DNA of 64,000 nucleotides from Candidatus Fermentibacterota bacterium (GTDB taxonomy: Bacteria > JAFGKV01): NCBI GenBank assembly GCA_030620115.1, contig JAUXFG010000001.1, forward strand, positions 9,677 to 73,676, given 5' to 3'. The position numbers were made by a program, and so were the translations under genes. Positions within the stretch are counted from its first letter, which is position 1. Each line of letters starts with the position of its first letter. The notes below the pieces were generated by a model. The model was given only the letters and a program-made list of their open reading frames with translations. It was not told where the DNA came from and ran no database searches. Positions 1,223-51,110 of this stretch are shown here, piece after piece.

Positions 1223-1371
1223 CTCAGGTTCCTCGCAGAGTATACGATTGCGTCGTCCGACATCCAGCGGCGTAGCCGCAGGTCAAGCCGCGTTAACCGA
1301 AAGCATCACCGTCTTTACCATCTCCGCTGTTTCGTACAGAGAGTTGGAGAGAAATACGGGTTAGCTTCGTC

Positions 1372-2272: not shown

Positions 2273-2491
2273 AGGGGGAATGATGGACGGAAAGGATTGG
2301 CCCGGACTCCTCAACTTCTCAATAGGTGCGGGCGGTCTCGGAAGAATCCCCTCAATCCCCCTCTACAGAAGGAGGAGCTCGCCCTCGGTCGCAAGCCTTT
2401 CAGTCTTCGCCTTCCCGTGGCTATGACGGACATGCGCAGCAATCCCGCATCCGCCGCGGAACACGAGATCCGGTGAGAAATGCGATTAGAG

Positions 2492-4426: not shown

Positions 4427-4503
4427 GGGGCGTAGCGCAGTTCGGTAGCGCACTGGCATGGGGGGCCAGTGGTCGCTGGTTCAAATCCAGTCGCCCCGAC
4501 CAG
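4427..4503 (+). tRNA. tRNA-Pro (anticodon GGG)
   Basis: Cloverleaf fits: acceptor CGGGGCG/CGCCCCG, D-arm GCGC-AGTTCGGTA-GCGC, anticodon stem CTGGC/GCCAG with loop AT-GGG-GG, T-arm GCTGG-TTCAAAT-CCAGT, and an encoded CCA. Confidence 0.85.
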
Positions 4504-6663: not shown

Positions 6664-6740
<77 letters not shown>

Positions 6741-8104: not shown

Positions 8105-8182
8105 GCCCCCGTAGCTCAGTCAGGATAGAGCACCGGTTTCCTAAACCGGGTGCCGCAAGTTCGAGTCTTGCCGGGGGCGCCA
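8105..8182 (+). tRNA. tRNA-Arg (anticodon CCT)
   Basis: Acceptor GCCCCCG/CGGGGGC, anticodon stem CCGGT/ACCGG with loop TT-CCT-AA, T-arm GCAAG-TTCGAGT-CTTGC, and an encoded CCA. Confidence 0.85.
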
Positions 8183-8188
8183 TTCGAT

Positions 8189-8262
8189 ACCCTAAGCCGG
8201 ACTTCTCACCGGGTTTCGAAGCGAAGCGTTCGTCACGATGTGCCACGCGGTTCTGTGTGGTG
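8189..8262. repeat. family R (REP-like) repeat, partial copy
   Basis: agccggacttctcaccgggtttcgaagcgaag matches the arm of the 25.7-kb, 27.0-kb and 50.9-kb copies. Confidence 0.45.
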
Positions 8263-22910: not shown

Positions 22911-23165
22911 GCCCCACGAAGGGTATAGGCTTCTTCCGAGACTATGCTCGGAAGAAGAAACGTCGAACATCCAACATTCAACGTCCAACATCGAAGTAGG
23001 AGCCTGGATTGGATCCGTCGGCTGGGGGATAGGTTTCTTTCGAGACTACGTATGGAAAAAAAACGTCGAAGATCGAACGCCGAAGTGGGGCGCTTCCTTC
23101 ATCCGTCCTCAGTCATCACTCTATCCCCGCCACTGCGGGGTTGGTGAACTCGCACTACCAATCGT

Positions 23166-23972
23166 CTAATCTACTGTATCGTTTCCCAAGATGGCATTTG
23201 CGATGCGCCTGATGGAAAAGGTTTTTATGCGGCGAGGGGAAGGGACAAGCAGGCGGATATCTTCTCCTCTGAGGATCATGCGAGGAAGCGTCTCAGAGAT
23301 CACATGGAAGTACTCCTCACCCCCCAGCTTGACAACCTTTTTCACAGCGTCCTTCCAAAGACGGACCCTTGAGGAGGGACCATGCAGGTCAGAGCCGAGA
23401 AGGTGAACCAGATGATTCCTTATCAGCAGTTCAGCGAATCTCTGGACATCAGAGCCATGCAGCCCAAAAAGGCTGGCGATGTCGAGCTGAGCGAGGATGC
23501 CTTTGCAGTACCACGATCGGATCTCCTCAGTATCTCTGTGGAGCAGGTAGTATCGCGCTGGATGGGCCACAATAGGAGTTATGCCTGATTCAACCATGTG
23601 TTCGAGTACGCTCATGGAGAACCATGGAATCTCATGCAGAGGAAACTCTACGAGAGCGTATGTGTGCTGATCCGCGATGGTGAGAAGATCGCCCTTGAGG
23701 AGTCGTTCGGTCATTCCTTGGTGAACCATGATTTCGCATCCGGGAATGAGCCGTATCACGATTCCCGCATCATCCAATGTCTGCTGGAGATCCCTGGTCG
23801 CAGAGAGCAGCATGTCAGGCGTGAGCTCATAGTGCCCCGGAAGGTAATGGGAGCTTGCGACCAGCGTCTGGATACCTTGCTCAACAAGTGCCCTGGCCGC
23901 CTGGAGGGCCTCTTCTGTGGTGGCACACCCGTCATCCATACCGGGAAGAATATGAGAATGGAAGTCTATCAC
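23166..23972 (-). CDS. Mn-dependent protein-tyrosine phosphatase, CpsB/YwqE (PHP-domain) family
   Basis: MIDFHSHILPGMDDG N-terminal signature with conserved His/Asp of the PHP fold. Confidence 0.8.
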   Translation of the reverse strand: MIDFHSHILPGMDDGCATTEEALQAARALVEQGIQTLVASSHYLPGHYELTPDMLLSATRDLQQTLDDAGIVIRLIPGCEIMVHQGMTERLLKGDLLTIADQHTYALVEFPLHEIPWFSMSVLEHMVESGITPIVAHPARYYLLHRDTEEIRSWYCKGILAQLDIASLFGLHGSDVQRFAELLIRNHLVHLLGSDLHGPSSRVRLWKDAVKKVVKLGGEEYFHVISETLPRMILRGEDIRLLVPSPRRIKTFSIRRIANAILGNDTVD

Positions 23973-24061
23973 CTGCTGCTCCAGAAGGGGCCTACGAAAA
24001 ATCCAAACAAGTAAGAGCGCGCCTGTGGGTGGTCAACCTGGACAGGAATTGCGAATGAGGA

Positions 24062-24217
24062 ATGTGAAATCTGATAATCTGGAATCTGCAATCTGGAATC
24101 TGGGGAAAGGGGAGAGATTCTTCGCTCCTGTCGGTCGCTCAGAATGACAGGGGTGTGGTACGAACAGATGTGGCACTGTGTGTCATTCTGAGGAAGCGGA
24201 GCGACCGAAGAATCTGG
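24062..24217. repeat. family H composite repeat, copy 3 (gaatctg tandem units plus the CAGAATGACA hairpin element)
   Basis: aatctgataatctggaatctgcaatctggaatctg followed by gagagattcttcgctcc...GTCGCTCAGAATGACAG...TGTCATTCTGAGGAAGCGGAGCGACcgaagaatctg. Confidence 0.7.
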
Positions 24218-24404
24218 GTGGGGGGAAGGCGGGAATTGAGGAATGCGGGAAGCTCGTGAGCTATTGAGCCCTTCGACTTTGCTCAGGACAGGCTGATAAG
24301 CTGTTGAGCGGGGATGGGAAGGGAAGATTGCTGGAATGGATTGGGATTCTTTGGCACATAAGACGTCATCCGCCAAAAAATTGTAACATTCCCGATGCGT
24401 CAGA

Positions 24405-25664
24405 TTACCCCTCCTTGGCCGCATATTCCTCGTACATCCAGCGATGCCCGTGCAGAGCCCTCAGTGCTTGCTTCGCATATATATTGTAGGGCTCGTCGAT
24501 GAGTATTCTCCGAAAGACTTGTTCGATTGTCTTTTTCTTGCCCGATCTGCGGCCGATCTCGGCCAAGATCTCGTAGACCCTCCATTGGCGCTTATTCACC
24601 GCCAGGAATCGTGTGGCGATCTCCTCTGCCTTGTACATGTTGCCGCCTTCATAGTACATGGTCATTACCCGTATCCACAGTTCCCAGTGGCTCTCCCAGT
24701 ATTCCGCGAGCTGCTCATACTCTCGTGCCGCCTCCAACATCATCCCCCGCCCCTCATACCCCATCCCTGCTTGGAGATGACCCACATTGAAGATCTGCTC
24801 CCGGTGTTCGGGTTTCATGAAACAGAGAGCCGACAGCAGGAGGGACGCCGCCAGAAGTACTCCGGCGCCCTTGAGAATTACCCGTTCCCTTCTGCGGACC
24901 ATTCCATGGGCTGCGATGGCTGCCACGGCAGTCAGGGAAAAGGCAAAAAAGACCTCCCCGACCTCATCGTCTGTTGCGGTAATCGGTGCACTCATGAGCC
25001 AGGCCCCCACTGCGAAGCCGGTGGCTGCACCAAAGCTGGGAACCGGAATGCCGAGTCGATAGAGAAGGCGCCCCAGGGGCTTGATGGCCCACGCGAGCAG
25101 AGGGACACCGACACCATAGATGAGCATGAAAAGGGCGCCCATGCGCCGTGGTTGCATCCACGGAGAAGAAATATTGTGGAGTGTTACCTCCATCTGTACG
25201 TTTCGTTGGAGAAAGTACTCGGGGGGGGTGAAGCCGAAGATCCGTTGTCCCCAACTGATTTCTTCCCCGGCTACGAAGAAGCTGAAAGCCGCCATGGCGC
25301 CGCAAAAGAGCATCCCAAGCCATTGGCGTTTCCGGGAGCGCCGGAAAGAGCTTCTCCCCCATAACAAGGCGCCCCACATGAGCGTCAGGAAGCCAAACCA
25401 TTCCGGTGGCGTATCCTCCATGAGCATATAACCATAGAGGGCAGGGAAGAAGAAGAGGAGTCCGCCGAACATGAGCACCAGGAGGCCGTTGACCAGAAGC
25501 TCGGGCCTTCCGAAGCGCCGGGTATCATATGATTGGTTTCCTGTGGCGAGTTGCGAAGATTCCACCCGGTCAGGCTCCTGAGACAAGAGATGTAGAGCTT
25601 TTCCCCTTCGATGCCCCCAACTTACACGAAAGCCGTGAATTGGGAAGATCCATCCATGGCACAC
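24405..25664 (-). CDS. membrane protein with C-terminal TPR-like domain, hypothetical
   Basis: Several TM helices and a conserved EEISWGQRIFGF loop, then helical repeats. The start is uncertain. Confidence 0.45.
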   Translation of the reverse strand: MCHGWIFPIHGFRVSWGHRRGKALHLLSQEPDRVESSQLATGNQSYDTRRFGRPELLVNGLLVLMFGGLLFFFPALYGYMLMEDTPPEWFGFLTLMWGALLWGRSSFRRSRKRQWLGMLFCGAMAAFSFFVAGEEISWGQRIFGFTPPEYFLQRNVQMEVTLHNISSPWMQPRRMGALFMLIYGVGVPLLAWAIKPLGRLLYRLGIPVPSFGAATGFAVGAWLMSAPITATDDEVGEVFFAFSLTAVAAIAAHGMVRRRERVILKGAGVLLAASLLLSALCFMKPEHREQIFNVGHLQAGMGYEGRGMMLEAAREYEQLAEYWESHWELWIRVMTMYYEGGNMYKAEEIATRFLAVNKRQWRVYEILAEIGRRSGKKKTIEQVFRRILIDEPYNIYAKQALRALHGHRWMYEEYAAKEG

Positions 25665-25756
25665 GGCGGGGCTGAAGCTGATACTGTGTGAGAAGGGCCT
25701 CGATCGGAGCGATTGCGGCGAAGGGCAGAATTTGCGTATGTTGCCCGCTCAGCGTT

Positions 25757-25900
25757 AGCCCGGACTTCTCACCGGCTTTCGTCGCGAAACCGTCGAGATG
25801 GTTCTGGCTGCGAGGCTTGCGACTGAGGACCCCGCAGGCGTATCCACTGTCCCGCGTCGGACGCGGGACTGCAGCCGAAAGCTGGTGAGAAGTTCGGGTT
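25757..25900. repeat. family R (REP-like) palindromic repeat, copy 1
   Basis: Contains gcttgcgactgaggaccccgcaggcgtatccactgtCCCGCGtcggaCGCGGGac. Its ends (ccggacttctcaccggctttcg / cgaaagctggtgagaagttcgg) are themselves inverted. Confidence 0.7.
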
Positions 25901-25911
25901 AGGAGGAATCA

Positions 25912-27036
25912 GTGAGCACACGCCGCGCAAGAATTGCCATCAAGAACCTCTGTTTCTCGATACTGCCTGCGCTTGTTCTTTTCGTGGGAGCGGAGGTGGC
26001 TCTTCGGCTTATTGCGCCTTTTTGGATGGAGTGTGTGCGGACCAGAGCTTGCCCGGCACATGATCACAGGCCTCTGAATCTTACCGAACAGGGACACAAT
26101 TTCAGTCTCGAGACGCATGAACCATTGTTCGTATACCATCCACGATTTTTCTGGTGGCCACGATCATATGTGCAAGGGACGTTCTGGTCGACGCCGGATG
26201 TGAAGACCAACAGGTTCGGGCTGCGAGATGATGAGGTCGACATGTCTCCCGGGAGGAGGAACATCCTGTTCGTTGGTGATTCGGTGGTGTGGGGTAGCCT
26301 GGTCTATCAGGAGGACCGATTCACGGAGAAGACGCACGCCATTCTTCAAAGCCAGCCTGAGTTCAGGGACGTCCAACTCATCAATGCAGGAGTTCTCGGC
26401 TTCTCCACCTTTCAGGTACGCACCTACCTCAAGGAAGAGGGGCTGGACCGATTCAAGCCTGAGGTTGTGGTCATTTGCGCGGGGATAAACGACAACTGGC
26501 CGTTCTCCATGTGCGACCGGGAGATCTATGCTCGTAATATGCGACTTGGCAACAGACTGAGGCGGTGGTGCATGCGGTCGGACCTCTTTCTATTGCTCGA
26601 CAGGTACGTCAATGAGCTGGCGTTGTGGGCGCGAACCGGGGAGAACCCTCAAGGATTCACATTCCTGTTCCGGGAATCGTCAGGGAAGAAGACGGTTCTT
26701 CGGAATCAACCCCATCAGACCGAGCAGAACTTGAGGGAGGCCGGCGCACTGATCGAAGCGTCGGGAGCCCGGGTCGTCATCGTGTTGGAGGACATACGCG
26801 CCCGACAACCCGGAGGTTTCGCTACGCGAAGCTTCAAGGCCGCAAGATCGAGGATCAGGCAGCTTGCCGCGCATGCGGGGTGGCCGGTCATCGAAATCGC
26901 CAAGCTCGGTCAACCCCCGATCGAGATGAAGGTGAATGACTATCTCATTGATTTTTGTCATTTACACCCGAGAGGGCACGAAGTGGTGGGGAGATGGCTG
27001 GCGGATGTGTTGACGGGAATGCTGCAAGAAGACTAA
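25912..27036 (+). CDS. membrane-anchored SGNH/GDSL-family hydrolase (paralog 1)
   Basis: N-terminal TM helix, a WMECVRTRACP motif, block I FVGDSVVWG, block III GINDN and block V DFCHLHPRGHE. GTG start with an AGGAGG RBS. Confidence 0.7.
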   Translation: MSTRRARIAIKNLCFSILPALVLFVGAEVALRLIAPFWMECVRTRACPAHDHRPLNLTEQGHNFSLETHEPLFVYHPRFFWWPRSYVQGTFWSTPDVKTNRFGLRDDEVDMSPGRRNILFVGDSVVWGSLVYQEDRFTEKTHAILQSQPEFRDVQLINAGVLGFSTFQVRTYLKEEGLDRFKPEVVVICAGINDNWPFSMCDREIYARNMRLGNRLRRWCMRSDLFLLLDRYVNELALWARTGENPQGFTFLFRESSGKKTVLRNQPHQTEQNLREAGALIEASGARVVIVLEDIRARQPGGFATRSFKAARSRIRQLAAHAGWPVIEIAKLGQPPIEMKVNDYLIDFCHLHPRGHEVVGRWLADVLTGMLQED

Positions 27037-27390
27037 CCCGAACTTCTCACCAGTTTTTGGCTGCAGTCCCGCGTCCGACGCGGGACAGTGGATACGCCTG
27101 CGGGGTCCTCAGTCGCAAGCCGAGCCCGGACCTCTCACCAGCTTCCTACCCCGCTGGAAGCGGGGCCGATATGGCTCTGTCTGCTGCGTTACGCTCCGTC
27201 AGCTTCCTCGATCCCGCGTCGGCCGCGGGACAGAGGATACGCCTGCGGGAGCCTCGGTCGCAAGCCTTGCAGCCACAACCATTTCTTCTGTCTCGCCACG
27301 GAAGCCGGCGAGAAGTCCGAGCTAACATTCAGAACCATTTCGGCCGTTTCGCTTCGAAAGCCGGTGAGAAGTCCGGCTTATCGAAGCTCC
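27034..27390. repeat. family R repeats, two tandem core copies in inverted orientation relative to copy 1
   Basis: 27067-27120 is the exact reverse complement of 25808-25861. A second core (CCCGCGtcggcCGCGGG) lies at ~27216. Arms ttctcacc / ggtgagaag are present. Confidence 0.7.
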
Positions 27391-29309
27391 GGGCGAAGCA
27401 AGAGCACCTGAATGTCGTGCTGGGCATCCTGGTACCCCACCTCAAGCTCTTCCCCTCTCATCATATCAAGACCTTTGCACACCCCCGGTTCACACCGTCT
27501 GAAGAGCTCATCAACATAGATGGCCTTGACATCTCTTGTCAGAAGCCACCCGAGCAGGTCGCGGCGCGATGTGAGTTTGCGGGGTTCGGGAAATATGGGG
27601 ATATAATCCAAGCGTGCCATGATCACGGGAGCCGGAGAGTAGGAAGCCACATTCGAACCTGCAGGGAGATGGCTGGCCAAGAAGAGAGCCGCCTGCTCGT
27701 TGGGAGCTGTGCCCAGCTCCGGGATGGAAGGGATGGAGCAGCGAGCTGGGCGGCAGAATAGGCTTTGGAGGGTAAGCAGGAATACTATGCCATAGGAGCC
27801 AATCGAGGTTCTGACTGAGTGTCTCAACGTGCCCCCATACCGATCCGATAGAATCCATATGATCGACAAGCCAAGCAGGAAGACCACGGCCGGGGCGAGC
27901 AGGCGCTTATTGACAGTGCCGAGTGCATAGATGATCAGTCCGAGCATTACGGCGCATGCTATTACCCGCTCTCGTCTCTGGTTTATTGTGGCGAATAGCG
28001 CGGCCGAACCAATGGCAGCAAGCACAAATACGATGGCGCAAGGCAGAAGGAAGTACCCCTCCCTGAAGAAGGTCACCAGGTAGGCCAGGAGATGCAAGGG
28101 CCACGCGAGCATGATGAGGAGAACGGACCATGCCCGTCTTCTGGCGAGTGCGACGATTCCGCGGACTGCGAGCAGGAGGAGCAGCGCGCCTGTTCCGTGG
28201 AGCCCCTTGCCATAGGCCACGAAAGCTTGAGCCGGCATCTGGAGGATTACATGAGTGATACGTTGAAGAAACGCCCTTGGATTCCTCCGGATGGCCTTGA
28301 GTACGGAATAGTTGTTATCCTCAGGCGTACCATAGAGATCCCGCGCCAAGGCATATCCCTCTACATAGGGATTCTCCGCCTCGCAGAGAGGACCATAAGC
28401 GACCCCTTGGCCTTGCTCAAACGCGTCGTAGAGTCTACGCTTGGTACCAACCTCGAACTCTCCCGAAAGCAACCCGACGAGCGCGATATATCCCCCAACT
28501 ATCACGGCGAATGGCGCCACGCATGCGGCGACTGATCCGAGCGTTTTCCCCCGTGCGCCATGCAGGAGAATCACAAGTATCAGTGCGGTGATGAAGAGAA
28601 GCAGCCCGTCATTCCGACAAAGTGCCGCCATGGAGATGAATACCGCGCAGATAACGAGGTGTTTCCTCAAGCCGGTGGCGGAGAACCTCAGAAACTGCCA
28701 GAGCGCAAAGGCGGAGAGAGCCGCGAAGAGCGCATCGCTGGAGTTATCCAGGATGCTCAAGAGACTGGGCGTTACCAAAAGAAGGAGCAAAGGCATGAGG
28801 GGCGATACGATGTGCTTGAGTTCGCGGCTGATGACGTAGGTGCCAAACCAAAGGAAGATGAAGATGATGATGCGGCCAAGCGCATAGGCATGCATGAGCC
28901 AGAATGGCGATTCTTGAAAAGGGATGATCGCCAGCGCCCAGAACGCGGCGACAAGCGGGTTGGATGCGTAGGTGGGGAATTCCCCGTGGAGCAGCAGCCG
29001 GCCATTGTTGAGATAGTAGGCTTCATCGAACGACCAGATGTCGGTCAGAGTGGGAAAGAAAGCGCGGAAGGTGAGAGCAAAACCTAAGGCGATGAGCAGA
29101 GCGACGCATATGGGTGGGCAGTCCCCGGGGATGAAAACATTCGATTTCCCCGGCGTTTGGCTATCGGGGATCCTACTTGATGTTCGCGTCTTGTTAGGCA
29201 AATCTATGGCCTCGCGACAGGGCTCCCTGCCATGGAAACGGGGAGCTCCGGATCTTGTCCGTGGCGAACAGGCGTCCGAGCCAACTGGGCAACCCCGAGA
29301 TCTTTCCAC
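27378..29309 (-). CDS. GT-C fold glycosyltransferase (PMT/ArnT, GT39/GT83-like) polytopic membrane protein
   Basis: At least 12 TM helices and a DE motif in the first extracytoplasmic loop (IWSFDEAYYLNNG). The track start at 29309 overlaps paralog 2, so the real start is probably an internal non-ATG codon. Confidence 0.55.
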   Translation of the reverse strand: MERSRGCPVGSDACSPRTRSGAPRFHGREPCREAIDLPNKTRTSSRIPDSQTPGKSNVFIPGDCPPICVALLIALGFALTFRAFFPTLTDIWSFDEAYYLNNGRLLLHGEFPTYASNPLVAAFWALAIIPFQESPFWLMHAYALGRIIIFIFLWFGTYVISRELKHIVSPLMPLLLLLVTPSLLSILDNSSDALFAALSAFALWQFLRFSATGLRKHLVICAVFISMAALCRNDGLLLFITALILVILLHGARGKTLGSVAACVAPFAVIVGGYIALVGLLSGEFEVGTKRRLYDAFEQGQGVAYGPLCEAENPYVEGYALARDLYGTPEDNNYSVLKAIRRNPRAFLQRITHVILQMPAQAFVAYGKGLHGTGALLLLLAVRGIVALARRRAWSVLLIMLAWPLHLLAYLVTFFREGYFLLPCAIVFVLAAIGSAALFATINQRRERVIACAVMLGLIIYALGTVNKRLLAPAVVFLLGLSIIWILSDRYGGTLRHSVRTSIGSYGIVFLLTLQSLFCRPARCSIPSIPELGTAPNEQAALFLASHLPAGSNVASYSPAPVIMARLDYIPIFPEPRKLTSRRDLLGWLLTRDVKAIYVDELFRRCEPGVCKGLDMMRGEELEVGYQDAQHDIQVLLLRPELR

Positions 29310-30451
29310 TCCCCAAGGTCAGCCCCGACCAATAGCTTCTCCAGTACCTCAGCGAGCCGCGTCGCCACGATATCATGGCCCTTTGGATGGAGATGGCAGA
29401 AATCAAGGAGGTACTCGTGTGGAACCAAGGACAATGGTGAGCTACTAAGATCCTCAATCTTGATGATTCCCCATCCTCGGTTGGTTGCCAGTCGCTCCAC
29501 TTTTGAGCGTCCGGCTCTGAATCCTTCTGGATCCCAGTTCTTTGGATGCTCGCTACGAGTGTGTTCCAGAATGATCACGACTCGCGCTCCCTGGACCTCG
29601 GCCGAATTGCCGATTTCTCTGAAATTCTCTTCCGTCTCGGAAGGCGAGTCTCGATGAATTCTCACAGGATTCCATCTCTCACGAAACAGAAAAGAAAGCC
29701 CTTCAGGATTGCGGCCAGTTCTCCGCCATTCCAGTAGTTCGCCGACGTACCGGTTGAGGAGAAGGAATACGTTTGAATGCATGAGGAAATGCTTCACACG
29801 ATATGGAGGCGACATATTCGTGCGGAAGCTCTCCCTGTCGCTCCTGTTAAACAGCCAGCTATCGTTGATGCCAGCACAGACAACAACAATCTCGGGTCTG
29901 AACCTGGTGAGGCCAACTCTCTTGAGGTATTGGAGTACCTGAAAAGATGAGAACCCGACTATGCCGGCATTGATGAGCTGTACATCTTCGAGGCCCGAGC
30001 GTCTTGAAAGGAGTTTCTGCGCTTTGTTGGAGAAACGTTCAGCCTCGAACACGAGACTCCCCCACATGACGGAGTCTCCCAGGAGGAGAACATTCCTTCT
30101 TGCCTGGGACTCGTCGATTTCGTTTCCGCGGAGCCCCAGACTGTTTGTCCGCACCTCGGGCGTTGCGCATACTGTGCCACGAATATGGGGCCGTGGCCAC
30201 CAGAACAGCCTTGGATGATAGATGGACAATGGTTCTCCCGTCTCAATCACGAAATTGCCGCGGTGCTGGGTGAAGAATACCGGATTGAAGTCATGCGGGG
30301 GGCATGCTCTCGTCCGCAGACATTCCATCCATGGTGGCGACACGATGCGGAGCCCAATCTCCATTCCAAGGAGGAGCAGCACAGCGGGAGCAACCGAAAA
30401 AAGGAGTTTCTTCCATTGCACAAGCTTCGCTACATTATTCCTATTGCTCAC
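29204..30451 (-). CDS. membrane-anchored SGNH/GDSL-family hydrolase (paralog 2)
   Basis: WMECLRTRACP, LLLGDSVMWG, GINDS and DFCHLHPKGHD. It has the same architecture as paralog 1 plus a ~40-aa C-terminal extension. Confidence 0.7.
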   Translation of the reverse strand: MSNRNNVAKLVQWKKLLFSVAPAVLLLLGMEIGLRIVSPPWMECLRTRACPPHDFNPVFFTQHRGNFVIETGEPLSIYHPRLFWWPRPHIRGTVCATPEVRTNSLGLRGNEIDESQARRNVLLLGDSVMWGSLVFEAERFSNKAQKLLSRRSGLEDVQLINAGIVGFSSFQVLQYLKRVGLTRFRPEIVVVCAGINDSWLFNRSDRESFRTNMSPPYRVKHFLMHSNVFLLLNRYVGELLEWRRTGRNPEGLSFLFRERWNPVRIHRDSPSETEENFREIGNSAEVQGARVVIILEHTRSEHPKNWDPEGFRAGRSKVERLATNRGWGIIKIEDLSSSPLSLVPHEYLLDFCHLHPKGHDIVATRLAEVLEKLLVGADLGEWKDLGVAQLARTPVRHGQDPELPVSMAGSPVARP

Positions 30452-30542: not shown

Positions 30543-31673
30543 CTATGTGCCCGCCACAGGTAATGAGAGCGTATCGTCATTTGTACTTGTCATCAGCTCG
30601 TCAATCCATCCCTCTTCGATGATTCGGGTTGCGACACACTCAGCGACGCGGCGGTTTCCTTTTGCATTGAAGTGACACTTGTCTTGTGGATAGTTCTTCA
30701 TGATCCCATCTTCAGGCGCCGTGCGGTACATGTCTCGAATATCGACGAGGACCAGGGAGTCTTCTCGCTCGAGACGCTGGAGCATGGCATTGTAGAAGTC
30801 AAGTGCAAGATCATGTCTTGCATGCTGCCGCGTGATGGCCAGGAATCGTGCTCCCCTGTGTTCACAGTAGGCTTTGGCTTTCTTGATGTTCTCGAAGTAC
30901 TGGGGCGGATCGACCCGCCGTGGATAATCGAGTGAGTGCTCCCAGGGCCTTTCCTCTATGGTACTGTTAGGGACCAAGTAGAGGGTACGTGTCCATCGGA
31001 TGAAGGCACTCTTGTCAAGGAGATGGCGCAGCGTGTACATGGGACCGGCATACAGTCGTGCGAATATGCGATCGCAATAGCCGTTGGCTGGCGCATTGTC
31101 GTTACTGCCTCCCCAGTACACCACGATGTCAGGCTTCACGCGGTCGAATTCCCCGCGCAGGATTTTCAGTGTCTGGTATGAACTATGGGCGGGAATGCCA
31201 AGATTGAAGGAGGCCATTCTCTGGGTGTCATATCGCTCGGCCACCAATGAAACCAGTACATCAGGGAAGCTCTTGCCCGGTGGTGACGACCAGCCCAATA
31301 CCATGGAGTCGCCCAAGAATATCCATCGAATCGCGTCGACTCCCTGATACCGCCAGGGTGTAGTGCGAAAACCCCAGGAGTCGATTCTGATCGTTTTTTT
31401 CTCGCCGGGTTTCATGCCGGCTTTGAGCTCGATATCGGGCTTGAGGGTCCAGAAGTAGCGCTGATGCCAGACAATCTTGCCCCGTACACCGGCGAGTCCC
31501 CGGCACCGAAATACCACTGGGTCGTGCAATGCCATTCCCGGGAAATGGAATGCCCGCGCCACCAACTCTCCTGCAAGAAAAAGCACCGGGAGCGCCAAGG
31601 CGACTATGGTGAAAAATCTGGTGATTCGCCACATCCTCATATTCCTTTTCCGGGGAAGAATCCGCGCTGCCAC
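30543..31673 (-). CDS. membrane-anchored SGNH/GDSL-family hydrolase (paralog 3, divergent)
   Basis: IFLGDSMVLGWS, WGGSNDN and DKCHFNAKGN blocks, with an N-terminal TM helix. The start may be an internal Met (MRMWRIT...). Confidence 0.6.
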   Translation of the reverse strand: MAARILPRKRNMRMWRITRFFTIVALALPVLFLAGELVARAFHFPGMALHDPVVFRCRGLAGVRGKIVWHQRYFWTLKPDIELKAGMKPGEKKTIRIDSWGFRTTPWRYQGVDAIRWIFLGDSMVLGWSSPPGKSFPDVLVSLVAERYDTQRMASFNLGIPAHSSYQTLKILRGEFDRVKPDIVVYWGGSNDNAPANGYCDRIFARLYAGPMYTLRHLLDKSAFIRWTRTLYLVPNSTIEERPWEHSLDYPRRVDPPQYFENIKKAKAYCEHRGARFLAITRQHARHDLALDFYNAMLQRLEREDSLVLVDIRDMYRTAPEDGIMKNYPQDKCHFNAKGNRRVAECVATRIIEEGWIDELMTSTNDDTLSLPVAGT

Positions 31674-36130: not shown

Positions 36131-36520
36131 TTCCGCACGGAACTGAGCTGCCGCTTCCCGCCGGGATGACAGAAGACAGAGGACAGCCATATGGAGTGCG
36201 GCGACATGTCGCCGCTTTGTTTCTCCGTGCCGTGTCGCGGAATCTGAAAGCGGCCTCGTGCGGCCGCACTCCAAGATTCTGTCATCGGAGCTTATCCCGC
36301 GCGGTACGCGGGATTGGTAATCTCCGCCCCACTAAGCGCTCATGGGGAAGCAGAGCGGTGTGCTCCATGAGCGTGAGAATGAATCAGTGTAGCTTCTCAA
36401 TAGATCCGTGCAATATCGGAAAAATCCCCCTCAATCCCCCTTTGCAAAGGGGGAGAAGGCCCGGATGCACGGACTTATTGAGAAGTTGCGAATCGCAAAG
36501 GCGCGTGAGGGGCTGGTAGC

Positions 36521-38200: not shown

Positions 38201-38593
38201 GCGGTGTCAGGGTTCGCGCAAGAATCAGCACTAACAACGGCCATGACGGAGTATGGCCCTCCAGAGGGGGATGCGTACATCTTGTCCTGTGGAGGGACGA
38301 CCTCCGTGTCGTCCGCAGAACTAGGCCCAAGAATCTCACGACTTTCTGCCTGAATCAACAACTCCGCAACCCGAAGTCCGTGAGCCACTGCCCTTGAGCA
38401 GAACCGAATGGCGAGAATGACTATGACGGCCAATGTCCTCCATCTTCCATCGGCATCGGCATCGAATTGAGGTGTGATCACATGGCCCTCAGTCGCGGAA
38501 ATCCGGATGTTTGATGAAGGCGCGCGCAACGGTGTGGCTGATTTTGATAGCGATTCCGATGATGCTCAGCTGAGAGCAGGGAGCAGAGAGCTC

Positions 38594-39775
38594 ATGGCCG
38601 GGGCTGGCGGGAAACAAGCACTGCGCATCCTTATGCTGGCGCCCTGCCCATTCCCCACCAGCCAAGGATCGCAGACGTTGATCAGGCAGCTGGCAGCCGG
38701 CCTCCAACATCGTGGACATGAAGTCCACCTGGTGACCTATCACCATGGTGAGTACAGGGAGGAATTCGCCTTCAGCGTGCATAGGACGCCCTATTTCCCC
38801 GGCACAAGCAGGCTCAAGGCGGGGCCGAGCCTTGGCAAGCTCGTGCTTGATCTTTTCTTTTGGTACATTGCAGTGAGAGTGGCGGGAGAGATCAATCCCC
38901 ATCTTATTCACGGGCACAACTACGAGGGCGCCATTCTTGGCCATTTGGTGGCCAAGAAACGCGGCATTCCACTGATATATCACACACATAACGTGATGCA
39001 TGAAGAGCTGCCCACCTACTTCCATCAGAGGCCTCTTCGATTTTTGGCGCGGAAGGTCGGTCTATGTTTGGATAATTGGATACCGCGGCACGCCGATCAA
39101 ATCATTGCCATCAACAGGGCGCTGAGGCGGGAGCTCGTGACCATGGGGATTGATCCTGAACGGATACGGATCGTACCTCCAGGAATCTGGCCGGCGGAGT
39201 GGGAGAGAGCCGTGGAGCCCCGGCAAGAGCCTTTGGTCGTCTACACCGGCAATCTGGACAACTATCAGAACCTTTCCCTGCTGATTGAGGGTATAAGGCT
39301 GGTGAAACAGAGGATTCCTGGAGCCACGCTGAAGATCGTAAGCCATGAGACCAGACCGAGGTTGGAACGAGAAGCTCGTAAGCTGGGCATGGAAGAAGCC
39401 GTAGAATTCATCAAAGTCGATACGTTCAGTCAGGTCAAGGCGTGGATACTGCGGGCTGCGGTGGTGGTCTGCCCGCGGATACCAACGTGTGGTTACCCCA
39501 TAAAGCTTGTGAACTACCTTGCTGCGGGTAGACCGGTGGTGGTCAGCGAGGCTTCCGCAGACGGCATTGTGGATGGGGAAAGCGGGCTGGTGGTGGAAAC
39601 AGGGAATCCCGCCGCGTATGCAGAGGGTATCATCAAGCTCCTCACCGATCGAGCACTTGCGACTCGCATTGCCCGGGAAGGGAGGCGCTTGGCATCGGAG
39701 AAGCATTCATGGGATCGATCTTTGGCTGCCATCGAGGCTTCGTATCGAGCGGCATTAACCGGGGTCAAATCTTGA
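38594..39775 (+). CDS. glycosyltransferase family 4 (GT-B)
   Basis: ILMLAPCPFP N-terminal domain and the EX7E-like C-terminal region (ESGLVVETGNPAAYAEGI). The start is taken at the internal Met; the track begins at 38474. Confidence 0.75.
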   Translation: MAGAGGKQALRILMLAPCPFPTSQGSQTLIRQLAAGLQHRGHEVHLVTYHHGEYREEFAFSVHRTPYFPGTSRLKAGPSLGKLVLDLFFWYIAVRVAGEINPHLIHGHNYEGAILGHLVAKKRGIPLIYHTHNVMHEELPTYFHQRPLRFLARKVGLCLDNWIPRHADQIIAINRALRRELVTMGIDPERIRIVPPGIWPAEWERAVEPRQEPLVVYTGNLDNYQNLSLLIEGIRLVKQRIPGATLKIVSHETRPRLEREARKLGMEEAVEFIKVDTFSQVKAWILRAAVVVCPRIPTCGYPIKLVNYLAAGRPVVVSEASADGIVDGESGLVVETGNPAAYAEGIIKLLTDRALATRIAREGRRLASEKHSWDRSLAAIEASYRAALTGVKS

Positions 39776-39786
39776 CGGGCATCCTC

Positions 39787-42700
39787 ATGGCCGGGCTTGT
39801 GCTGGCAGTCATCGGAGCACCTTCGCATGGGGCTGAGGTCGAGGTTCTCAGATCAGACCAGGCGAGCATCAGGTTGCTGATCAGGCCCTCAGTGGATGAT
39901 CGGGTATGGAATGGATGGGTCGGCCTCCCTCCCGGAGCCTCGGTGGAAGAGGTGAGCGTTCGAACACAAGGGCGTGTGCGCCCGGTACCATGGGAGCTGG
40001 GCCGCGAGGTCACCACAAGTCCTCAAATCACCGTTGGTCCCGTGGGTTTCATAAGGTTCCATAGGGCTTGTCCCCTTCGGGTCGAGACAGGAATGGCTAC
40101 CCAGGACGGGGTGGCAGGAATTCCAGAGGTCCTATTGGTGGAGATCCTGCTTTCGCCAGGATCTGCCAAGGCGCGGAAACGAAATGTCGGATTTCAGAAT
40201 GTATTGTCGAATTTGTTCGTGAACTGGCAAAGCGCCCAGCATTGGGCCGAGCAGATGGACGGTCCGCCGCTTCCGCCTCCAGTGCCGGCCCCGAGCATCC
40301 GTATCCGAGTAAGAGAGGAGGGGCTCTACAGGATTACTGCAGAGGATCTTCCCGATATGCCTGGGGATGCGGATCCCCGGATGTTTTCTCTTTGGAACCG
40401 AGGGAGCTATGTTCCTTTGCGGGTGGTAGTGCAGCAGCCGGACACCGTATGGAAAGATGGTGACTGGATCGAGTTCTATGCCCACGGCACCCGGCGGGAA
40501 GATCCACAGGGACGGTGGACTCCGGTGGAAAGCAAGTATGGCCTCGATAACCCCTACTATCTCGTGTGGGACCAGGTGGATCCTCCAAGAATCCTCGATG
40601 TGTCTTCAGAGCCTACAGGCGGCCCGGCCGCTACGTATCATTGGTGGGTATGTCACCGTGAGGTGAACACGAATTCCTCACTATCGGGCCATGAGGGAGC
40701 CATCGACGATGAATGGTACTGGGGCGGACAGCTCGGCCCCGGCCAGATTTCCAAGCAGTTTTCTCTGCCAGATCTGGCGCGGGAAGTGGCGGATGGGGTG
40801 ATCCGCGCCAGATTCCAATCCATGAGCCTTTCCGAGTCTGAGATGCATCTTCTGGTGAATGGCGCCATGGTCGCAGAAGGGTCGTGGAACGGCTTCGGCG
40901 CACAGCTCTTGGAAGGTCAGGGGGTGCCGCTTGATGTGGGTACGAATCAGCTCGTTATGGATTTCTCGGGAGATGCGTACTCACGAGTTCATCTCGACTG
41001 GTTCGCAATTCAATACCCTCGAGAGTATGTCATGTCAGGGGGGCAGGCCGCGTTCGGACCATCTGCCGATGATCGCCCAGAGTACGAGATTTCTGGTTTG
41101 GAGCCTGGGACCAAGACGGATATCTTTGAGATCAGCTCAGGCCTCAGATTCATGGATTTCCACCACGAGGCGGACCAAGAAGGGGCAATCCGGTTCAGGG
41201 CTAATCTCCCGGATAGTGCGACCTTCTTGGTGGTGACGAACAGCGGTTGGCTTACTTCCCTTGATCTTCCCGACATGCCTACGTGGATCGAGCCACATCC
41301 GGCCGTGGCTGATGAGGATCGAGAAGGTAGCTATTTGATTGTGTATCCGTCTGATTTCTTAGAGGCGGCCAGCGGCCTGAGAGATCACCATCTGGACGCC
41401 GGAGATATCGAAAGTGCAGAGATGGTGGATGTGCGCCATATCTGGGAGGAGTTCTCATACGGCCTGCCGGACCCGCGAGCCTTGCGCTCATTCCTGCAAT
41501 GGACATTGGCCAATTGGAGCGATCCGCCGGAGTTCGTGCTGCTCTTTGGGGACGGCACGTGGGACTACAACGGCTACATGAACCAACACGCCAGCGTGAA
41601 TCTCGTGCCCAGCTATGGCAATCCCGCGTCTGATAATTTCTACGCGAGCCTCAACGATACGAGCTACTTCCCCGATCTACACGTCGGACGTGTGCCGGCG
41701 GTTGATGCCACTCAAGCCTGGAATGCTTTCCAAAAGATACGCAACTACCGTGCCTCTCCAGAGCCGTCGTTGTGGCGCAAGCTTGTTCTTTTTGTCAATG
41801 GCGGGGGCACACAGGATGAGTTTGACTACTTCGCGGCGTGGACATCGATCACCTCCCAGCTTGTCGTCGCACCGCCGCCGGTCCTGGGCGCCACATCGAT
41901 CATTGCTAAGGACCAGGAAGAATACTGGATGGGCTACTACAATAAGAGCATAGCCGCGGCGGTAGACTCAGGCTGTCTGATCATGAACTTCTTCGGCCAC
42001 GCCGCAACGCAGACCTGGGACTTTATGTTCGAGTCAGATGATGTTGATTCACTTCTCAACGGGGATCGTACCCCCTTGGTGCTCAGCCCTACATGCTTCA
42101 CCGGCGATTTCGCGGATCCACGCCAGGTGGTCTTCGCGGAACACTTCCTCAGATTGGACGAACCGGAGCACGGCGCAATCGGCTTTTTTGGAAGCTCCGG
42201 CACCGCGTACCAGAACAAAGGCGGGGTCTACGCCTATCGGATCATGGAGTCCATCTTTTGCAAGGGAGATCCCCGAGTCGGGCCGGCAATCACCTGGGCG
42301 AAGCTCAACGGATATCCCTACACGAGCCCTGAGGACTCGATCATGGCCACGGTATTCAGCCTGCTGGGCGATCCGCTCCTCTCCCTCGTGCTGCCCGAAG
42401 CGCCGGACCTTCACATCGGTCCGGAGAGGGTTACCGTGCAACCAGAGGAGCCGGCAGTGGGGGATAGCGTGAGGCTTCTTGTGAGCGTGCTCAATGAAGG
42501 GGTGTCATGGGAGGATGAATACCGGGTGACTGTCCACTGCGAAGGCCAGGAGCTGGCTTCAGGATTTGCCCGGGCCGATTCGCTGGAGAATCGCCTTTCC
42601 TTGTCCTGGCCTGCCCCTGCCCAACCGGGAAGCCAGGAGATCGAGATCCATGTGGACCCGGATCAGAGTGTAGAAGAGGAAGACAGGGAGGACAATACCA

Positions 42701-46807: not shown

Positions 46808-46852
46808 TAAGAGAGATTCTTCGGTCGCTCCGCTTCCTCAGAATGACACACA
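46808..46852. repeat. family H repeat, half copy (right arm, reverse orientation)
   Basis: gagattcttcggtcgctccgcttcctcagaatgacac is the reverse complement of the right arm of the hairpin element. Confidence 0.5.
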
Positions 46853-48457: not shown

Positions 48458-49022
48458 GGTGTTCTATGATCTACAGATGATAGGCAACTTGTGGGTTCGA
48501 GTCCAGTTTTTGATGCCTCTGCGGGTTGCCAATCGAAGAAGAATGATGCATATTGTTTCCAGGGCAGATAGCCCTGCTGAATGCACCATGGCAGGAGGAT
48601 GGAAAGCTTTGCGCCACTTGTTGGGCTGCCATTCTATTCGCCGGTTCGGATATCCCGTACGTGGGCGATCTCGAAGAGGTAGCACCGACCTCCCACCGTT
48701 CAATTCCCTTGAGATACTTAACCCCCAGAGGTCAGAAGTCAGAAATCAGAGGTCAGCCGGACAACTTCGTCGGCAGCTCTCTCGCGAGCTTCTCCGCGTG
48801 ATGAGCTTCCACTCCCGCGCAGTACGCGGGACAGAAAGCGTAGATGTCTCGAATCAAGACTCTGATCTTTGTGTCCCGCACTGGTTCCATGTGTCCTTCA
48901 TGGGGTTGATAGGGGAAGAAAGCACGGTTCTGAGGCGCAGCTGAAGATCATGAGAAGGGATTGCCGAGGATTGGTGCAAAGCGGTCTTGTTGCATCATGA
49001 CACCGACGCTGGAGGTGATGTA

Positions 49023-49652: not shown

Positions 49653-50909
49653 ATGAGGTGGGCGGCCCTTGAAGCACGACAGCTTTTCTCCACTGGATTC
49701 TTCCATGTCGTGGGAGCCCAGGGTGTGGTGCGAGCTGTCACGATTGTACAGGGGTTGGTGCTTGCGCGTATGCTGGGGCGCGAGGATCTTGGGCGATACG
49801 CGGTATTCGCGTCCGTGTTGGCCCTGGGGGCGATTGTTGCCCAGGCGGGAGTTCCCAGTGCGCTTTCCCGTTTCATCGCCCTTGCTGAGGACAGGAAGCG
49901 CCAGAAGGAAATCCGTGACTCGGCGGCGACCGTGGCAATCCTGTGGTCTCTGGTGGTGGGTGCTTCTCTCGCGCTGCCGCCGTTAGGACGCGTGCTCTCC
50001 AATGAGTCCTGGGTATGGGGCGTCCTTCCTCTTGCACTGATCATTCTTCCGCTGCAGACAGCTTCGCAGTCGAGCCTGGCGTTGTTGCACGGCCGTGCGA
50101 TGCTCCAGAGGAAATCCGGTCTCGAGAGCCTGGCTGCTCTGATCTCCATTATGGCCATCATCGGGGGAGCTATGGGCATGGGCGTCTCTGGCGCGGCGTG
50201 GGGGCGGGTCGTCGCGGCGGGGTGTATTGCGGTGATGATAGGCCGGGTCACCGGGCAAAGGCCCTCTGCAAAGAAGGTATGCCCCGATGGATTCTGGCGA
50301 TTCGCGCTTTTGAGCCTGGCCAGCTCGTCGTTCTCCACCATGATCCATACGGCGGATACGCTGGTGCTGGCAATATTCCGGATCGGCAGTGGCATCATCG
50401 GAGATTACCGTGTCGCCGCCATGGCATACCTTGGTCTCTCCATGGTTCCCGCTGCCGCCATGCATACGATGTTTCCTCGACTGGTGAGAATACACAGGGA
50501 TGGCGGCGATCTCGCAGCTCTCTGTCGGCGATTGGGGATTCGACTCCTGGCTTATGGGCTGACCGTGGGGATCATGGGAGTGGTGTTTTTACCCAGGCTG
50601 CTTGTATGCATTCTTGGGGCACAGTACCATGGGTCCAAGCCCTTTCTTCTGATTCTCTCAATGGGGCTGCCCTTTCGGGCGCTGGTGTTGGGCGCAGGCA
50701 GCGTCATCCTTGCTTTGGGAAGACCGGGTCTCAACTTCTCACTTCTTCTACTTTCGGGAACTCTCAACATTGCCCTCAATGTGTTGCTCATTTCCTCAAT
50801 CGGCGCAGTTGGCGCGGCGTGGGCAACATTGGCCACCGAGGCAACCAGCGCCATTGCCGGATCCGTGGCGGTTCTGGTTATTTTGAGGAGGTCTCTCCGT
50901 GCGGGCTAG
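49653..50909 (+). CDS. MOP-superfamily polysaccharide flippase (Wzx/MurJ-like)
   Basis: 418 aa with ~12 TM helices and a polysaccharide biosynthesis protein-like N-terminus. Confidence 0.65.
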   Translation: MRWAALEARQLFSTGFFHVVGAQGVVRAVTIVQGLVLARMLGREDLGRYAVFASVLALGAIVAQAGVPSALSRFIALAEDRKRQKEIRDSAATVAILWSLVVGASLALPPLGRVLSNESWVWGVLPLALIILPLQTASQSSLALLHGRAMLQRKSGLESLAALISIMAIIGGAMGMGVSGAAWGRVVAAGCIAVMIGRVTGQRPSAKKVCPDGFWRFALLSLASSSFSTMIHTADTLVLAIFRIGSGIIGDYRVAAMAYLGLSMVPAAAMHTMFPRLVRIHRDGGDLAALCRRLGIRLLAYGLTVGIMGVVFLPRLLVCILGAQYHGSKPFLLILSMGLPFRALVLGAGSVILALGRPGLNFSLLLLSGTLNIALNVLLISSIGAVGAAWATLATEATSAIAGSVAVLVILRRSLRAG

Positions 50910-51110
50910 CCTGCGCTTCTTACCGGCTTTCGTCGCGAAGCGGTGTAGTTAGCTGTGCCTGCAAGGCTTGCGACCGAGGACCCCGCAGGCGTATCCCCTG
51001 TCCCGCGTCTGACGCGGGATCGAGGAGTCCGAAGGAGCGTAACGCAGCAGGCAGAGCCAAATGCAACGCTGTAGTCCCGCGGCGGACGCGGGATGAGAAA
51101 TGCGGGCTAA
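50907..51110. repeat. family R (REP-like) repeat, copy 3
   Basis: cttaccggctttcgtcgcgaag...gcttgcgaccgaggaccccgcaggcgtatcccctgtCCCGCGtctgaCGCGGGat...gagcgtaacgcagcaggcagagcc...CCCGCGgcggaCGCGGGat. It shares both cores and the gagcgtaacgcagcagg segment with the 27-kb copy. Confidence 0.7.

Follow-up and report, generated by a model that had tools for sequence, protein, structure and literature searches.

The BOX elements of Streptococcus pneumoniae are intergenic and modular, with partly complementary ends around a variable middle, and form stable stem-loops. REP and BIME sequences of enterobacteria and pseudomonads are extragenic, carry an over-represented GC-rich palindromic core and are arranged in mosaic clusters of a few modules; they often stand right after stop codons and show an orientation bias relative to transcription. 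Bacterial MITEs are <200 bp long; inverted repeats and TA mark their termini, and their transcripts form long stem-loops (PMC2229807). The Correia elements of Neisseria (NEMIS, CREE) occur in two forms, of 107 and 155 bp, whose inverted repeats measure 24 bp, and the RUP of S. pneumoniae is a TA-targeting MITE linked to IS630-Spn1 (PMC2229807).

Here we describe Family R, a set of small, non-coding, hairpin-forming intergenic repeats of MITE/REP-like, "junk-type" character, found in a window of 64,000 nt (the whole stretch analysed) from the genome of a Candidatus Fermentibacterota bacterium. It is probably a lineage-specific, non-autonomous bacterial MITE-type family whose closest counterparts are Correia, BOX and BIME. 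With Correia elements it shares terminal inverted repeats of about 25 nt, TA at both termini, intergenic positions that often abut genes, and transcripts in the form of long stem-loops (PMC2229807), along with a short and a long size class, the latter having about 50-60 nt more in its interior (107/155 bp in Correia, 146/~205 nt in Family R). There is no sequence similarity between the two, and Family R is GC-rich whereas Correia is A+T-rich; of the two, only Family R contains a REP-like GC hairpin and has half-units that stand alone and a doublet that may be propagated, and in it no counterpart was seen of the Correia IHF site, promoter or RNase III processing. BOX resembles it in the modular build, partly complementary end modules, stem-loops and intergenic position, but is unrelated in sequence. 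The REP/BIME features listed above all recur in Family R; its unit, however, is much larger, is bounded by 26-nt arms with TA, and comes without a conserved GTAG-type 5' motif, REPIN geometry, or a RAYT in the window ORFs tested. RUP differs in having a known parent IS with matching inverted repeats, and it too has no sequence relation to Family R.

Anatomy and abundance of the repeats

Each unit is bounded by 26-nt terminal inverted arms that close with TA (TA-RCCCGGACTTCTCACCGGCTTTCG). The family's left arm has the sequence TAGCCCGGACTTCTCACCGGCTTTCG. Its right arm differs slightly and, taken as the reverse complement, reads TAACCCGAACTTCTCACCAG. Between the arms lie a short spacer and then a conserved B module with a REP-like GC hairpin (GTCCCGCG-N5-CGCGGGA), a GC-rich palindrome of 17-21 nt; long copies have an additional segment of about 60 nt, made up of a linker and a second hairpin. 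Besides the short form of 146 nt and the long form of about 205 nt there are solo, nested and decayed copies (Table 1). The arms are kept across five full elements (those of E1 form a 26-nt inverted repeat, 88% complementary), and the consensus structure maintains the terminal stem, with compensatory changes in 4 of 54 predicted pairs.

Exact matches to the core CCCGCG-N5-CGCGGG number 7 in the window, where 0.34 would be expected, an approximately 20-fold over-representation and a count reached in none of 100 shuffles; all seven cores (25851, 27068, 27213, 36296, 48814, 51002 and 51076) lie in apparently non-coding stretches. The arm motif GGACTTCTCACCGGCTT, allowing up to 3 mismatches, had 10 matches against 0.21 expected, one of them a partial arm at 8193-8228. 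E1 to E5 occupy two intergenic regions, at 25.7-27.4 kb and 50.9 kb; elsewhere there are a solo unit (8.2 kb), decayed copies (1.3 and 2.4 kb) and lone hairpins (36.3 and 48.8 kb). ORFs that overlap the repeats had no Pfam match and are accounted for by the repeats themselves.

Table 1. Family R copies in the window and the SGNH gene that they enclose
Feature	Position	Strand	Score or likeness	Parts and surroundings
Old decayed copy	1238..1365	-	HMM E 6e-4	Recognisable L arm, spacer, B-module start
Decayed, rearranged copy	2296..2490	.	Weak HMM matches at 2382-2405, 2437-2471	L-like arm; B fragment (CCTCGGTCGCAAGCC); degenerate hairpin 2442-2462; R-like arm (GGTGAGAAATGCGATTAG); adjoins stop codon of SNF-family transporter
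Solo L arm + spacer unit	8193..8250	+	T-arm HMM E 3.8e-8; 36 nt at 94% to 27345-27380	10 nt past tRNA-Arg(CCU), 8105-8182
E1, complete short-form element, 146 nt	25756..25901	+	Family HMM E 1.6e-41	L arm 25756-25781; spacer 25782-25813; B module 25814-25869; GC hairpin 25849-25869; R arm 25876-25901; TA at both ends
SGNH/GDSL hydrolase ORF, 374 aa	25912..27036	+	Pfam Lipase_GDSL_2 PF13472, E 8.6e-14	GTG start 25912; TAA stop 27034-27036
E2, partial element (R arm + B module)	27033..27121	-		Inverted twin of the 3' 89 nt of E1
E3, complete long-form element	27122..27325	-	HMM E 1.7e-63; 156 nt, 81% to 50.9-kb copy; 115 nt, 85% to E1	R arm 27122-27144; second hairpin 27149-27165; linker 27181-27196; B module 27211-27266; spacer; L arm 27299-27325
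E4, solo "L arm + spacer" unit	27330..27380	-	54 nt at 85% to 25753-25806	
Lone CCCGCG-N5-CGCGGG hairpin	36296..36312	.		Apparently intergenic
Lone hairpin with B-module remnant (..CGCTTTCTGTCCCGCG..)	48795..48835	-	HMM E 0.068	
E5, complete long-form element, 203 nt	50907..51109	+	HMM E 2.3e-59	Hairpins 51002-51018 and 51076-51092; between flippase and GNAT genes

An earlier note on this DNA had proposed a dispersed palindromic family of REP/BIME/MITE type, and the several copies in the window, with those on three unrelated metagenome contigs, bear this out. The cores that it placed near 27216, 51003 and 51076 are exact matches at 27213, 51002 and 51076, its partial arm near 8200 was found at 8193-8228, and the 50.9-kb copy matches 27169-27324 over 156 nt at 81%, GAGCGTAACGCAGCAG included. 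Two cores described as degenerate are present, at 36296 and 48814, but their core pattern is exact and it is the arms that are absent. The arm ends given as ttctcacc/ggtgagaag are contained in the arms, which run on to the terminal TA.

REPs are imperfect palindromes of 20-40 nt, paired in inverted orientation in REPINs, and a RAYT gene typically has REPs at its flanks. An over-represented extragenic palindrome of this kind could also point to REP/REPIN elements that owe their mobility to a RAYT (Y1 tyrosine transposase), with the GC hairpin functional as ssDNA and the arms as passengers. The armless hairpins at 36296 and 48814 and the BIME-like, clustered mosaic arrangement agree with this, and the strand-specific folding bias reported below would suit a single-strand mechanism. 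The conserved unit, however, is neither a hairpin nor an inverted hairpin pair, but a sequence of 146-205 nt with 26-nt TA arms. In a long element both hairpins run in the same direction at a spacing of about 74 nt, which is not REPIN geometry; the 5' flanks of the hairpins vary (CTGT, GCAG, CGAT, TTAT, CACT, GTAG), a GTAG-type tetranucleotide occurring only at 51072. No RAYT or Y1_Tnp match was obtained among the ~40 window ORFs tested, and the lone hairpins, with their B-module and R-junction remnants, look like decayed elements. Directly after the hairpin at 36296 comes GGGATTGGT, which is also seen at the R junction in the L023 and L015 copies, and this hairpin is therefore probably a decayed family fragment; that at 48795-48835 is probably one as well. 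We consider a REP/REPIN origin unlikely.

The preferred MITE-type reading agrees with the terminal inverted repeats, the dispersed copies and their absence at two orthologous junctions in relatives, and the elements, at 146 and ~205 nt and without coding capacity, are of MITE size (about 100-300 bp for such non-autonomous derivatives of DDE transposons). Solo modules, fixed composites and the same solo|full junction at three loci argue against a simple cut-and-paste MITE and are more like a BIME mosaic.

Copies beyond the window

A metagenome scan with GGCGTATCCNCTGTCCCGCG returned 11 matches, only three of which, on the unrelated contigs L015, L019 and L023, are true family members. These carry the same modules beside different genes (GNAT/GrpB/NUDIX, an AAA_14 ATPase, and ORFs of no assigned family). 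Searched against 185,579 species genomes, the same pattern gave 9 single matches in unrelated taxa, none extending past the pattern and all put down to chance; these representatives evidently do not include the source species. The 23 matches to the arm pattern CCGGACTTCTCACCGG in a viral scan were likewise chance matches, none of them extending, and blastn of E1 against plasmids found no match. Rfam returned only tRNAs at gathering score over the whole window and, in E-value mode over 25650-27450, only chance-level matches (E >= 0.067). No transposase/Y1 family was matched among the ~40 window ORFs or in the ORFs of the three contigs. Mobilisation of Family R would have depended on a transposase supplied in trans from another part of the genome.

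Folding and sense-strand bias

Folded as RNA, the sense strand of E1 reached -87.8 kcal/mol (z -6.9), and that of E3 had a z-score of -6.6 as compared with -3.4 for the antisense strand; the sense strand was the better of the two in 5 of 6 elements. Arm transitions compatible with wobble pairing numbered 31 on the sense strand and 8 on the antisense strand, counts that are not independent events since much of the L/R asymmetry is inherited from the master copy. At every site where the flanking genes are co-directional (E5, 8193, L023 and L015), the sense strand of the element is the transcribed strand. The elements are probably co-transcribed with neighbouring genes and would fold as long sense-strand stem-loops, so that if they have an effect today it would be on how mRNA is processed or how stable it is. 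The family hairpins have no T-run and so are not intrinsic terminators, and a scan of 25.5-27.5 kb found no terminator-like site and a sole promoter-like match, which lies within the SGNH ORF but on the opposite strand. Were the family abundant across the genome, an extrapolation from one window and three small contigs putatively of the same organism, it could serve as a strain-typing marker and as a handle on mRNA processing in a phylum without genetics.

The G·U-compatible asymmetry of the arms on one strand, the better sense-strand fold scores in 5 of 6 elements, the sense orientation at co-directional sites and the identity of the inverted pair described below all hint at a single-strand reading. 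The family would then have been shaped or propagated as RNA or ssDNA, and the 89-nt pair maintained for action on the SGNH gene, whether by switching through inversion or by forming a 5'/3' RNA stalk. We judge this to be very unlikely; were it true, such a switch or stalk would control a polysaccharide-modifying esterase.

The inverted pair around the SGNH gene

The earlier note had reported a block of ~55 bp and its exact reverse complement on the two sides of the SGNH gene. The 55-nt block is real, although its left copy lies at 25815-25869 rather than 25808-25861 (about 7 nt off), and its exact reverse complement is present at 27066-27120. The repeat that brackets the gene is longer than claimed: 25814-25902 and 27033-27121 match in inverted orientation over 89 nt, with 87/89 positions identical (98%). 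On the left it stops 10 nt short of the GTG start, and the AGGAGG ribosome-binding site overlaps the terminal A of E1; on the right it begins at the TAA stop. The SGNH ORF is enclosed by the repeats and is not itself a part of the family.

The B modules of E1 and E2 are identical (56/56), as compared with 86-93% for every other pair, and the distal part (E1 vs E4) is only 85% identical. This near-identity appears best explained by local gene conversion; the gene-proximal 89-nt segments could have become alike by conversion or by local partial duplication, and a conversion tract would be confined to the stretch of uninterrupted homology. The module order on the right-hand side agrees with a history in which E3 inserted into a short element and split it into E4 and E2. 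However, L019 and L023 show the same junction of solo unit against full element (CTGAATG|T.A, E4/E3) with no fragment trailing it, and the doublet of solo unit and full element may therefore itself be a propagated form.

Could the pair act as a functional SGNH switch, through inversion by RecA or a recombinase (phase variation of polysaccharide modification) or as a long-range RNA stalk that joins the 5' and 3' flanks of the SGNH mRNA for RNase III-type processing? Its identity of 98-100% is far above the family background, and the limits of the repeats at the start and stop codons would suit such a role. The transcript 25754-27121 is predicted to pair the repeats (duplex -205 kcal/mol; 88/89 positions with E2), and inversion would set SGNH in the same direction as the convergent membrane-protein gene. 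On the other hand, gene conversion is by itself enough to account for the identity, folding during transcription would favour the local stem of E1, and the same elements stand at unrelated loci without such pairing; no recombinase gene was found nearby in the window, and the present orientation of SGNH is the ancestral one, as seen in the relative described next. We give a switch only a slim chance.

Gene order in relatives

The SGNH gene is one of three paralogues in a polysaccharide locus. In a syntenic relative, represented by four Fermentibacteria-type contigs (L010-L013), the order is CpsB, membrane protein, SGNH and a convergent 610-aa gene, with DXS, NAD kinase, RecN and others kept in order ahead of CpsB. 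Protein identities to the window are 59% for the membrane protein, 55% for SGNH (P0002) and 48% for the convergent gene. The gap between SGNH and the convergent gene is 7 nt in the relative and 341 nt of repeats in the window, and no family copy occurs across ~35 kb of the relative (L010 and L025). The flippase-GNAT junction, site of E5, is a 4-nt gene overlap in one relative, and in another it is a spacer of 60 nt free of repeats, the repeat-free sites being those of relatives at only 48-59% protein identity at the locus.

Since the same gene order exists without repeats, the SGNH gene is a resident positional orthologue and the repeats are later arrivals. The order of events can be reconstructed as follows: the SGNH gene is evidently ancestral, and the repeats were inserted on both sides of it afterwards. 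Copies would have entered intergenic space once the lineage had split from its nearest sampled relatives, landing independently, E1 upstream and E2-E4 (nested or tandem) downstream of the resident gene. The elements do not move SGNH.

The earlier note had suggested instead a MITE pair able to mobilise the enclosed gene, and had named beforehand the observation that would count against this, an SGNH gene without repeats in a matching context; the syntenic relative provides it. The idea of a composite cassette, flanked by MITEs and able now or in the past to move SGNH, gains some appeal from the tight bracketing of the ORF by an 89-nt, 98% inverted repeat and from the accessory type of the SGNH genes, with their three paralogues. 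We find it highly improbable: in the repeat-free relative the gene has the same position and orientation between the same orthologues, and P0002 is closer to the window copy (55%) than to the paralogue (49%). The geometry is also wrong for a composite transposon, with R-arm termini at the gene-proximal ends and internal B sequence at the outer ends, and the right-hand copy (E2) is a truncated fragment. An integron-type attC or other site-specific recombination site marking gene cassettes, brought to mind by imperfect palindromes of 60-150 nt directly 3' of stop codons and by the GTTAGG end of E1 (like the attC core GTTRRRY), can be dismissed, as other ends do not keep the GTT core (GCTAAC, GCTTAT, GCTAAG), orientations are mixed, the window has no integrase match, and the flanking genes are syntenic core genes in relatives.

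The chief use of these results is in correct annotation: SGNH is to be treated as resident rather than as a mobile cassette, and the repeats account for several spurious ORFs and enlarged intergenic regions in an uncultivated Fermentibacteria-type genome.

TA termini and stop codons

TA was found at nearly every intact terminus, the two exceptions being the R end of E3 (CTC) and one terminus on L015; the terminal TA may be a target-site duplication or a part of the arm. The terminal TAA or TAG of elements forms the stop codons of four genes. The TAA of E2 (27034-27036) doubles as the SGNH stop, the terminal TTA of E4 (27378-27380) is the reverse complement of the TAA stop of the convergent gene, which encodes a 643-aa PMT_2-like membrane protein, and the first three bases of E5, TAG, are the flippase stop; the fourth is that of an ORF on L023. 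When E5 or the L023 doublet was removed in an excision model that left one TA, compact stop-N4-ATG junctions resulted (TAAGCCCATG, TAAAATCATG). The four coincident stops and these compact junctions together suggest that the family inserts into the TA of stop codons and regenerates the stop. Insertion would be at TA dinucleotides, frequently the TA of a stop codon, which would be restored because the element begins TA-A/G. With such insertion, a repeat could spread into tightly packed operons and do little harm.

Structure and distribution of Family R

Family R, the palindromic repeats with a CCCGCG-N5-CGCGGG core, is genuine: a mosaic, MITE-like family that is specific to its lineage and carries a REP-like hairpin internally. 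The window contains seven matches to the core, where 0.34 would be expected and no more than 2 appeared in any of 100 shuffles; for the arm motif the figures are ten and 0.21. We recovered every other site named in the earlier note (27213, 51002, 51076, 36296, 48814 and the arm at 8193–8228), and the segment GAGCGTAACGCAGCAG is common to copies, as it stated.

The window is core chromosome, with four tRNAs, IF3, RNase Y, exonuclease VII, DXS, NAD kinase, RecN and MutS2; RNase Y has its best named relatives in Candidatus Fermentibacteria (78% identity), and its closest sequences reach 84–85%. A polysaccharide locus comprises CpsB, a flippase, GT4 glycosyltransferases, GNAT, an epimerase and three SGNH paralogues; a very large ORF of 2148 aa (39709–46155) lies in the same region. 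None of about 40 window ORFs matched a transposase, an integrase or the Y1 family.

Coordinates of repeat elements and associated features in the window (L023 is a metagenome contig)
Feature	Position	Strand	Description
E1	25756-25901	+	complete short form, 146 nt: TA, L arm, spacer, B module, R arm, TA
E2	27033-27121	-	R arm + B only
E3	27122-27325	-	long element
E4	27330-27380	-	solo L arm + spacer unit
E5	50907-51109	+	long element, 203 nt
Solo L arm + spacer unit	8193-8250	+	3' of tRNA-Arg
Decayed Family R copy	1238-1365	-	
Decayed Family R copy	~2296-2490		
Lone hairpins	36296, 48814		remnants of adjoining family sequence retained
SGNH stop	27034		TAA, terminal triplet of element
Convergent gene stop	27378-27380	-	TAA, terminal triplet of element
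Flippase stop	50907		TAG, terminal triplet of element
L023 37-codon ORF stop			TAG, terminal triplet of element
SGNH/GDSL paralogue	25912-27036	+	
SGNH/GDSL paralogue	29204-30451	-	
SGNH/GDSL paralogue	30543-31673	-	
Second palindromic family	2169-2269, 24115-24215, 46814-46853, 53890-53990, 56155-56255, 4304-4352		4 full and 2 half copies
Heptamer-like arrays	2125-2152, 4274-4301, 55989-56052, 24047-24102, 53826-53852, 22965-23000, 54034-54069, 48730-48757		
Long-range inverted pair	24240-24318 / 47181-47259		79 nt, 94%
Long-range inverted pair	38235-38263 / 54075-54103		29 nt, 97%

In E1 the L arm is TAGCCCGGACTTCTCACCGGCTTTCG, the spacer contains ..GAGATGGTTCTG.., and the B module, which carries a GC hairpin, reads GGCTTGCGAC.GAGG..CCCGCAGGCGTATCC.CTGTCCCGCG-N5-CGCGGGA; the two arms of E1 are inverted repeats of 26 nt with 88% complementarity. 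Between L and R arms there are consistent differences (CCGGAC...CACCGG versus CCGAAC...CACCAG/AA). In the long elements a linker plus another GC hairpin add about 60 nt between B and the R arm. On the right-hand side of the SGNH gene, the array on the minus strand reads [L-spacer] [L-spacer-B-linker-hairpin2-R] [B-R], and one reading is that an E1-like short element (E4 plus E2) was split by the nested long element E3. The junction between solo unit and full element, CTGAATG|T.A..., is seen again in two metagenome contigs (L019 and L023), so the doublet may itself be a propagated form. The B-module loop in L023 (362–408) and in a third such contig, L015 (3206–3375), is interrupted by a further palindromic sequence nested within it, CCACG(T/C)GAGTC...GTGGTCACGGGAA, of about 45 and 170 nt, respectively.

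A 20-nt B-module pattern gave chance matches only against 185,579 species genomes, a set from which the source species is absent. Metagenome contigs yielded three genuine members with the same pattern: L015, L019 and L023, whose accessions share the prefix RCNG01 and which all have Family R arms, spacer, B module and hairpin; the family is therefore not unique to the window. Similarity of these contigs to the window is limited to the repeats, and their neighboring genes are unrelated (GNAT/GrpB/NUDIX/DUF3024; an AAA_14 ATPase; ORFs without assignment).

The inverted copies around the SGNH gene

The ~55-bp block and exact reverse complement of the earlier note are present (25815–25869 and 27066–27120), the left copy having been placed about 7 nt too far left. 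The actual inverted repeat is longer, 89 nt (25814–25902 versus 27033–27121), with 87 of 89 positions matching and both mismatches, G/A, in the arm. It stops 10 nt upstream of the SGNH GTG start (25912) and resumes at the TAA stop (27034–27036), enclosing an ORF of 374 aa for an SGNH/GDSL hydrolase (Pfam PF13472, E 8.6e-14). Three SGNH/GDSL paralogues lie within 6 kb, the first two with 70% DNA similarity over 160 nt.

Self-matches aside, the SGNH protein's best homologue is P0002, which is 55% identical to it (49% to the paralogue) and is present on four contigs of a relative, L010–L013. These share the window's order of polyprenyl synthase, DXS, NAD kinase, RecN, a 361-aa protein, NYN, HATPase and CpsB(-), followed by a membrane protein(-), SGNH(+) and a convergent 610-aa protein(-); the proteins flanking SGNH are 59% and 48% identical over nearly full length. 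The SGNH and convergent genes are 7 nt apart in the relative versus 341 nt in the window, nearly all of it E2–E4, and a search of about 35 kb from the relative (L010 and L025) gave no arm, B module or core. At the flippase–GNAT junction, E5 stands in place of a 4-nt gene overlap in one relative and a 60-nt spacer without family sequence in another (L051); downstream synteny is kept in both. Judged by this shared gene order without repeats, the SGNH gene is ancestral in position and orientation, and the repeats arrived later.

The syntenic relative has a single SGNH gene, then CAT and DUF169 genes. Within the syntenic block, repeats expand the window's intergenic regions, as between CpsB and the membrane-protein gene (about 430 nt, 23972–24405, versus 153 nt, L010 8371–8524). 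ORFs such as 23969–24424 and 27088–27411 had no protein-family match and are probably artefacts of repeats.

E1 and E2 have identical B modules (56/56), whereas every other pair is 86–93% identical, and the distal part of E1 is just 85% identical to E4. The 89-nt tract coincides exactly with the uninterrupted homology, limited by the gene-proximal element terminus on one side and the start of E3 on the other. Gene conversion between inverted copies 1.1 kb apart, or local partial duplication, would most simply explain the match. Copies thus entered the DNA to either side of an SGNH gene already in place, and the two inverted ones were then probably homogenised locally. There is a small probability that the pair instead serves SGNH as an RNA stalk or inversion switch; in a transcript spanning E1 to E2 the 89-nt repeats are predicted to pair at −205 kcal/mol, but the orientation of SGNH is the ancestral one. 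A MITE pair mobilising the gene, one of the earlier note's suggestions, is contradicted: SGNH sits in the same gene context without flanking repeats on L010–L013, the finding that the note had named as refuting it.

Class of element and probable insertion at stop codons

Membership among MITEs is supported by size, inverted repeats, dispersal and presence/absence differences. Typical bacterial MITEs, Correia and RUP among them, end in TA, carry inverted repeats of ~25 nt, fall into short and long classes, and give stem-loop transcripts (PMC2229807); Family R likewise has TA at almost every intact terminus, 26-nt arms, two size classes and predicted stem-loops. In mode of working it resembles Correia, BOX and BIME elements. 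Membership of REP/RAYT fails on geometry and flanking motif. Family R is neither an attC array nor a known RNA family, Rfam having matched only tRNA across the window.

The predicted fold of E1 is −87.8 kcal/mol in sense versus −76.3 in antisense, and fold z-scores from dinucleotide shuffles were better on the sense strand in five of six elements (E3, −6.6 versus −3.4; E5, −4.5 versus −2.3). Wobble-compatible arm transitions numbered 31 in sense versus 8 in antisense, many inherited from a master copy and not independent events. Where flanking genes are co-directional (E5, 8193, L023, L015), the sense strand is always the transcribed one. By these predictions, the pattern fits co-transcribed, structure-forming repeats, as in REP, ERIC and Correia elements.

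The single noteworthy detail of Family R is its stop-codon-regenerating ends. TA is present at almost every intact terminus, and in four cases the terminal triplet is a gene's stop codon. Removing E5 or the L023 doublet in silico, with one TA kept, leaves a compact stop–4 bases–ATG (TAAGCCCATG and TAAAATCATG); in L023 the downstream frame is then open for 99 codons. TA-targeted insertion with TA duplication would yield these ends and junctions and, since the element's first bases are TA-A/G, a stop codon hit at its TA would be restored. In the database, the GNAT protein (P0142, 322 aa) begins at an ATG inside the E5 R arm (51100), and a second ATG lies 5 nt past E5 (51115); E5 may donate the start codon and first five codons.

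Other repeats in the window

A second palindromic family of about 100 nt, unrelated to Family R, is intergenic (AGATTCTTCG..GTCGCTCAGAATGACA / TGTCATTCTGAGG..CGACCGAAGAATCT); one pair of 40 nt shows 100% complementarity. Beside this family are short heptamer-like tandem arrays (GTTCAGC/GTTGAGC, AATCTGG/AATCTGC, GAACATCCAAC.., GGTCAGAAGTCAGAAATCAG), which seem to be parts of composite intergenic repeat blocks. Two tRNA-Pro genes lie 2.2 kb apart (4426–4502 and 6664–6740; anticodons GGG, CGG), the first preceded by a second-family half copy and a tandem array. Two long-range inverted pairs belong to further repeat families.
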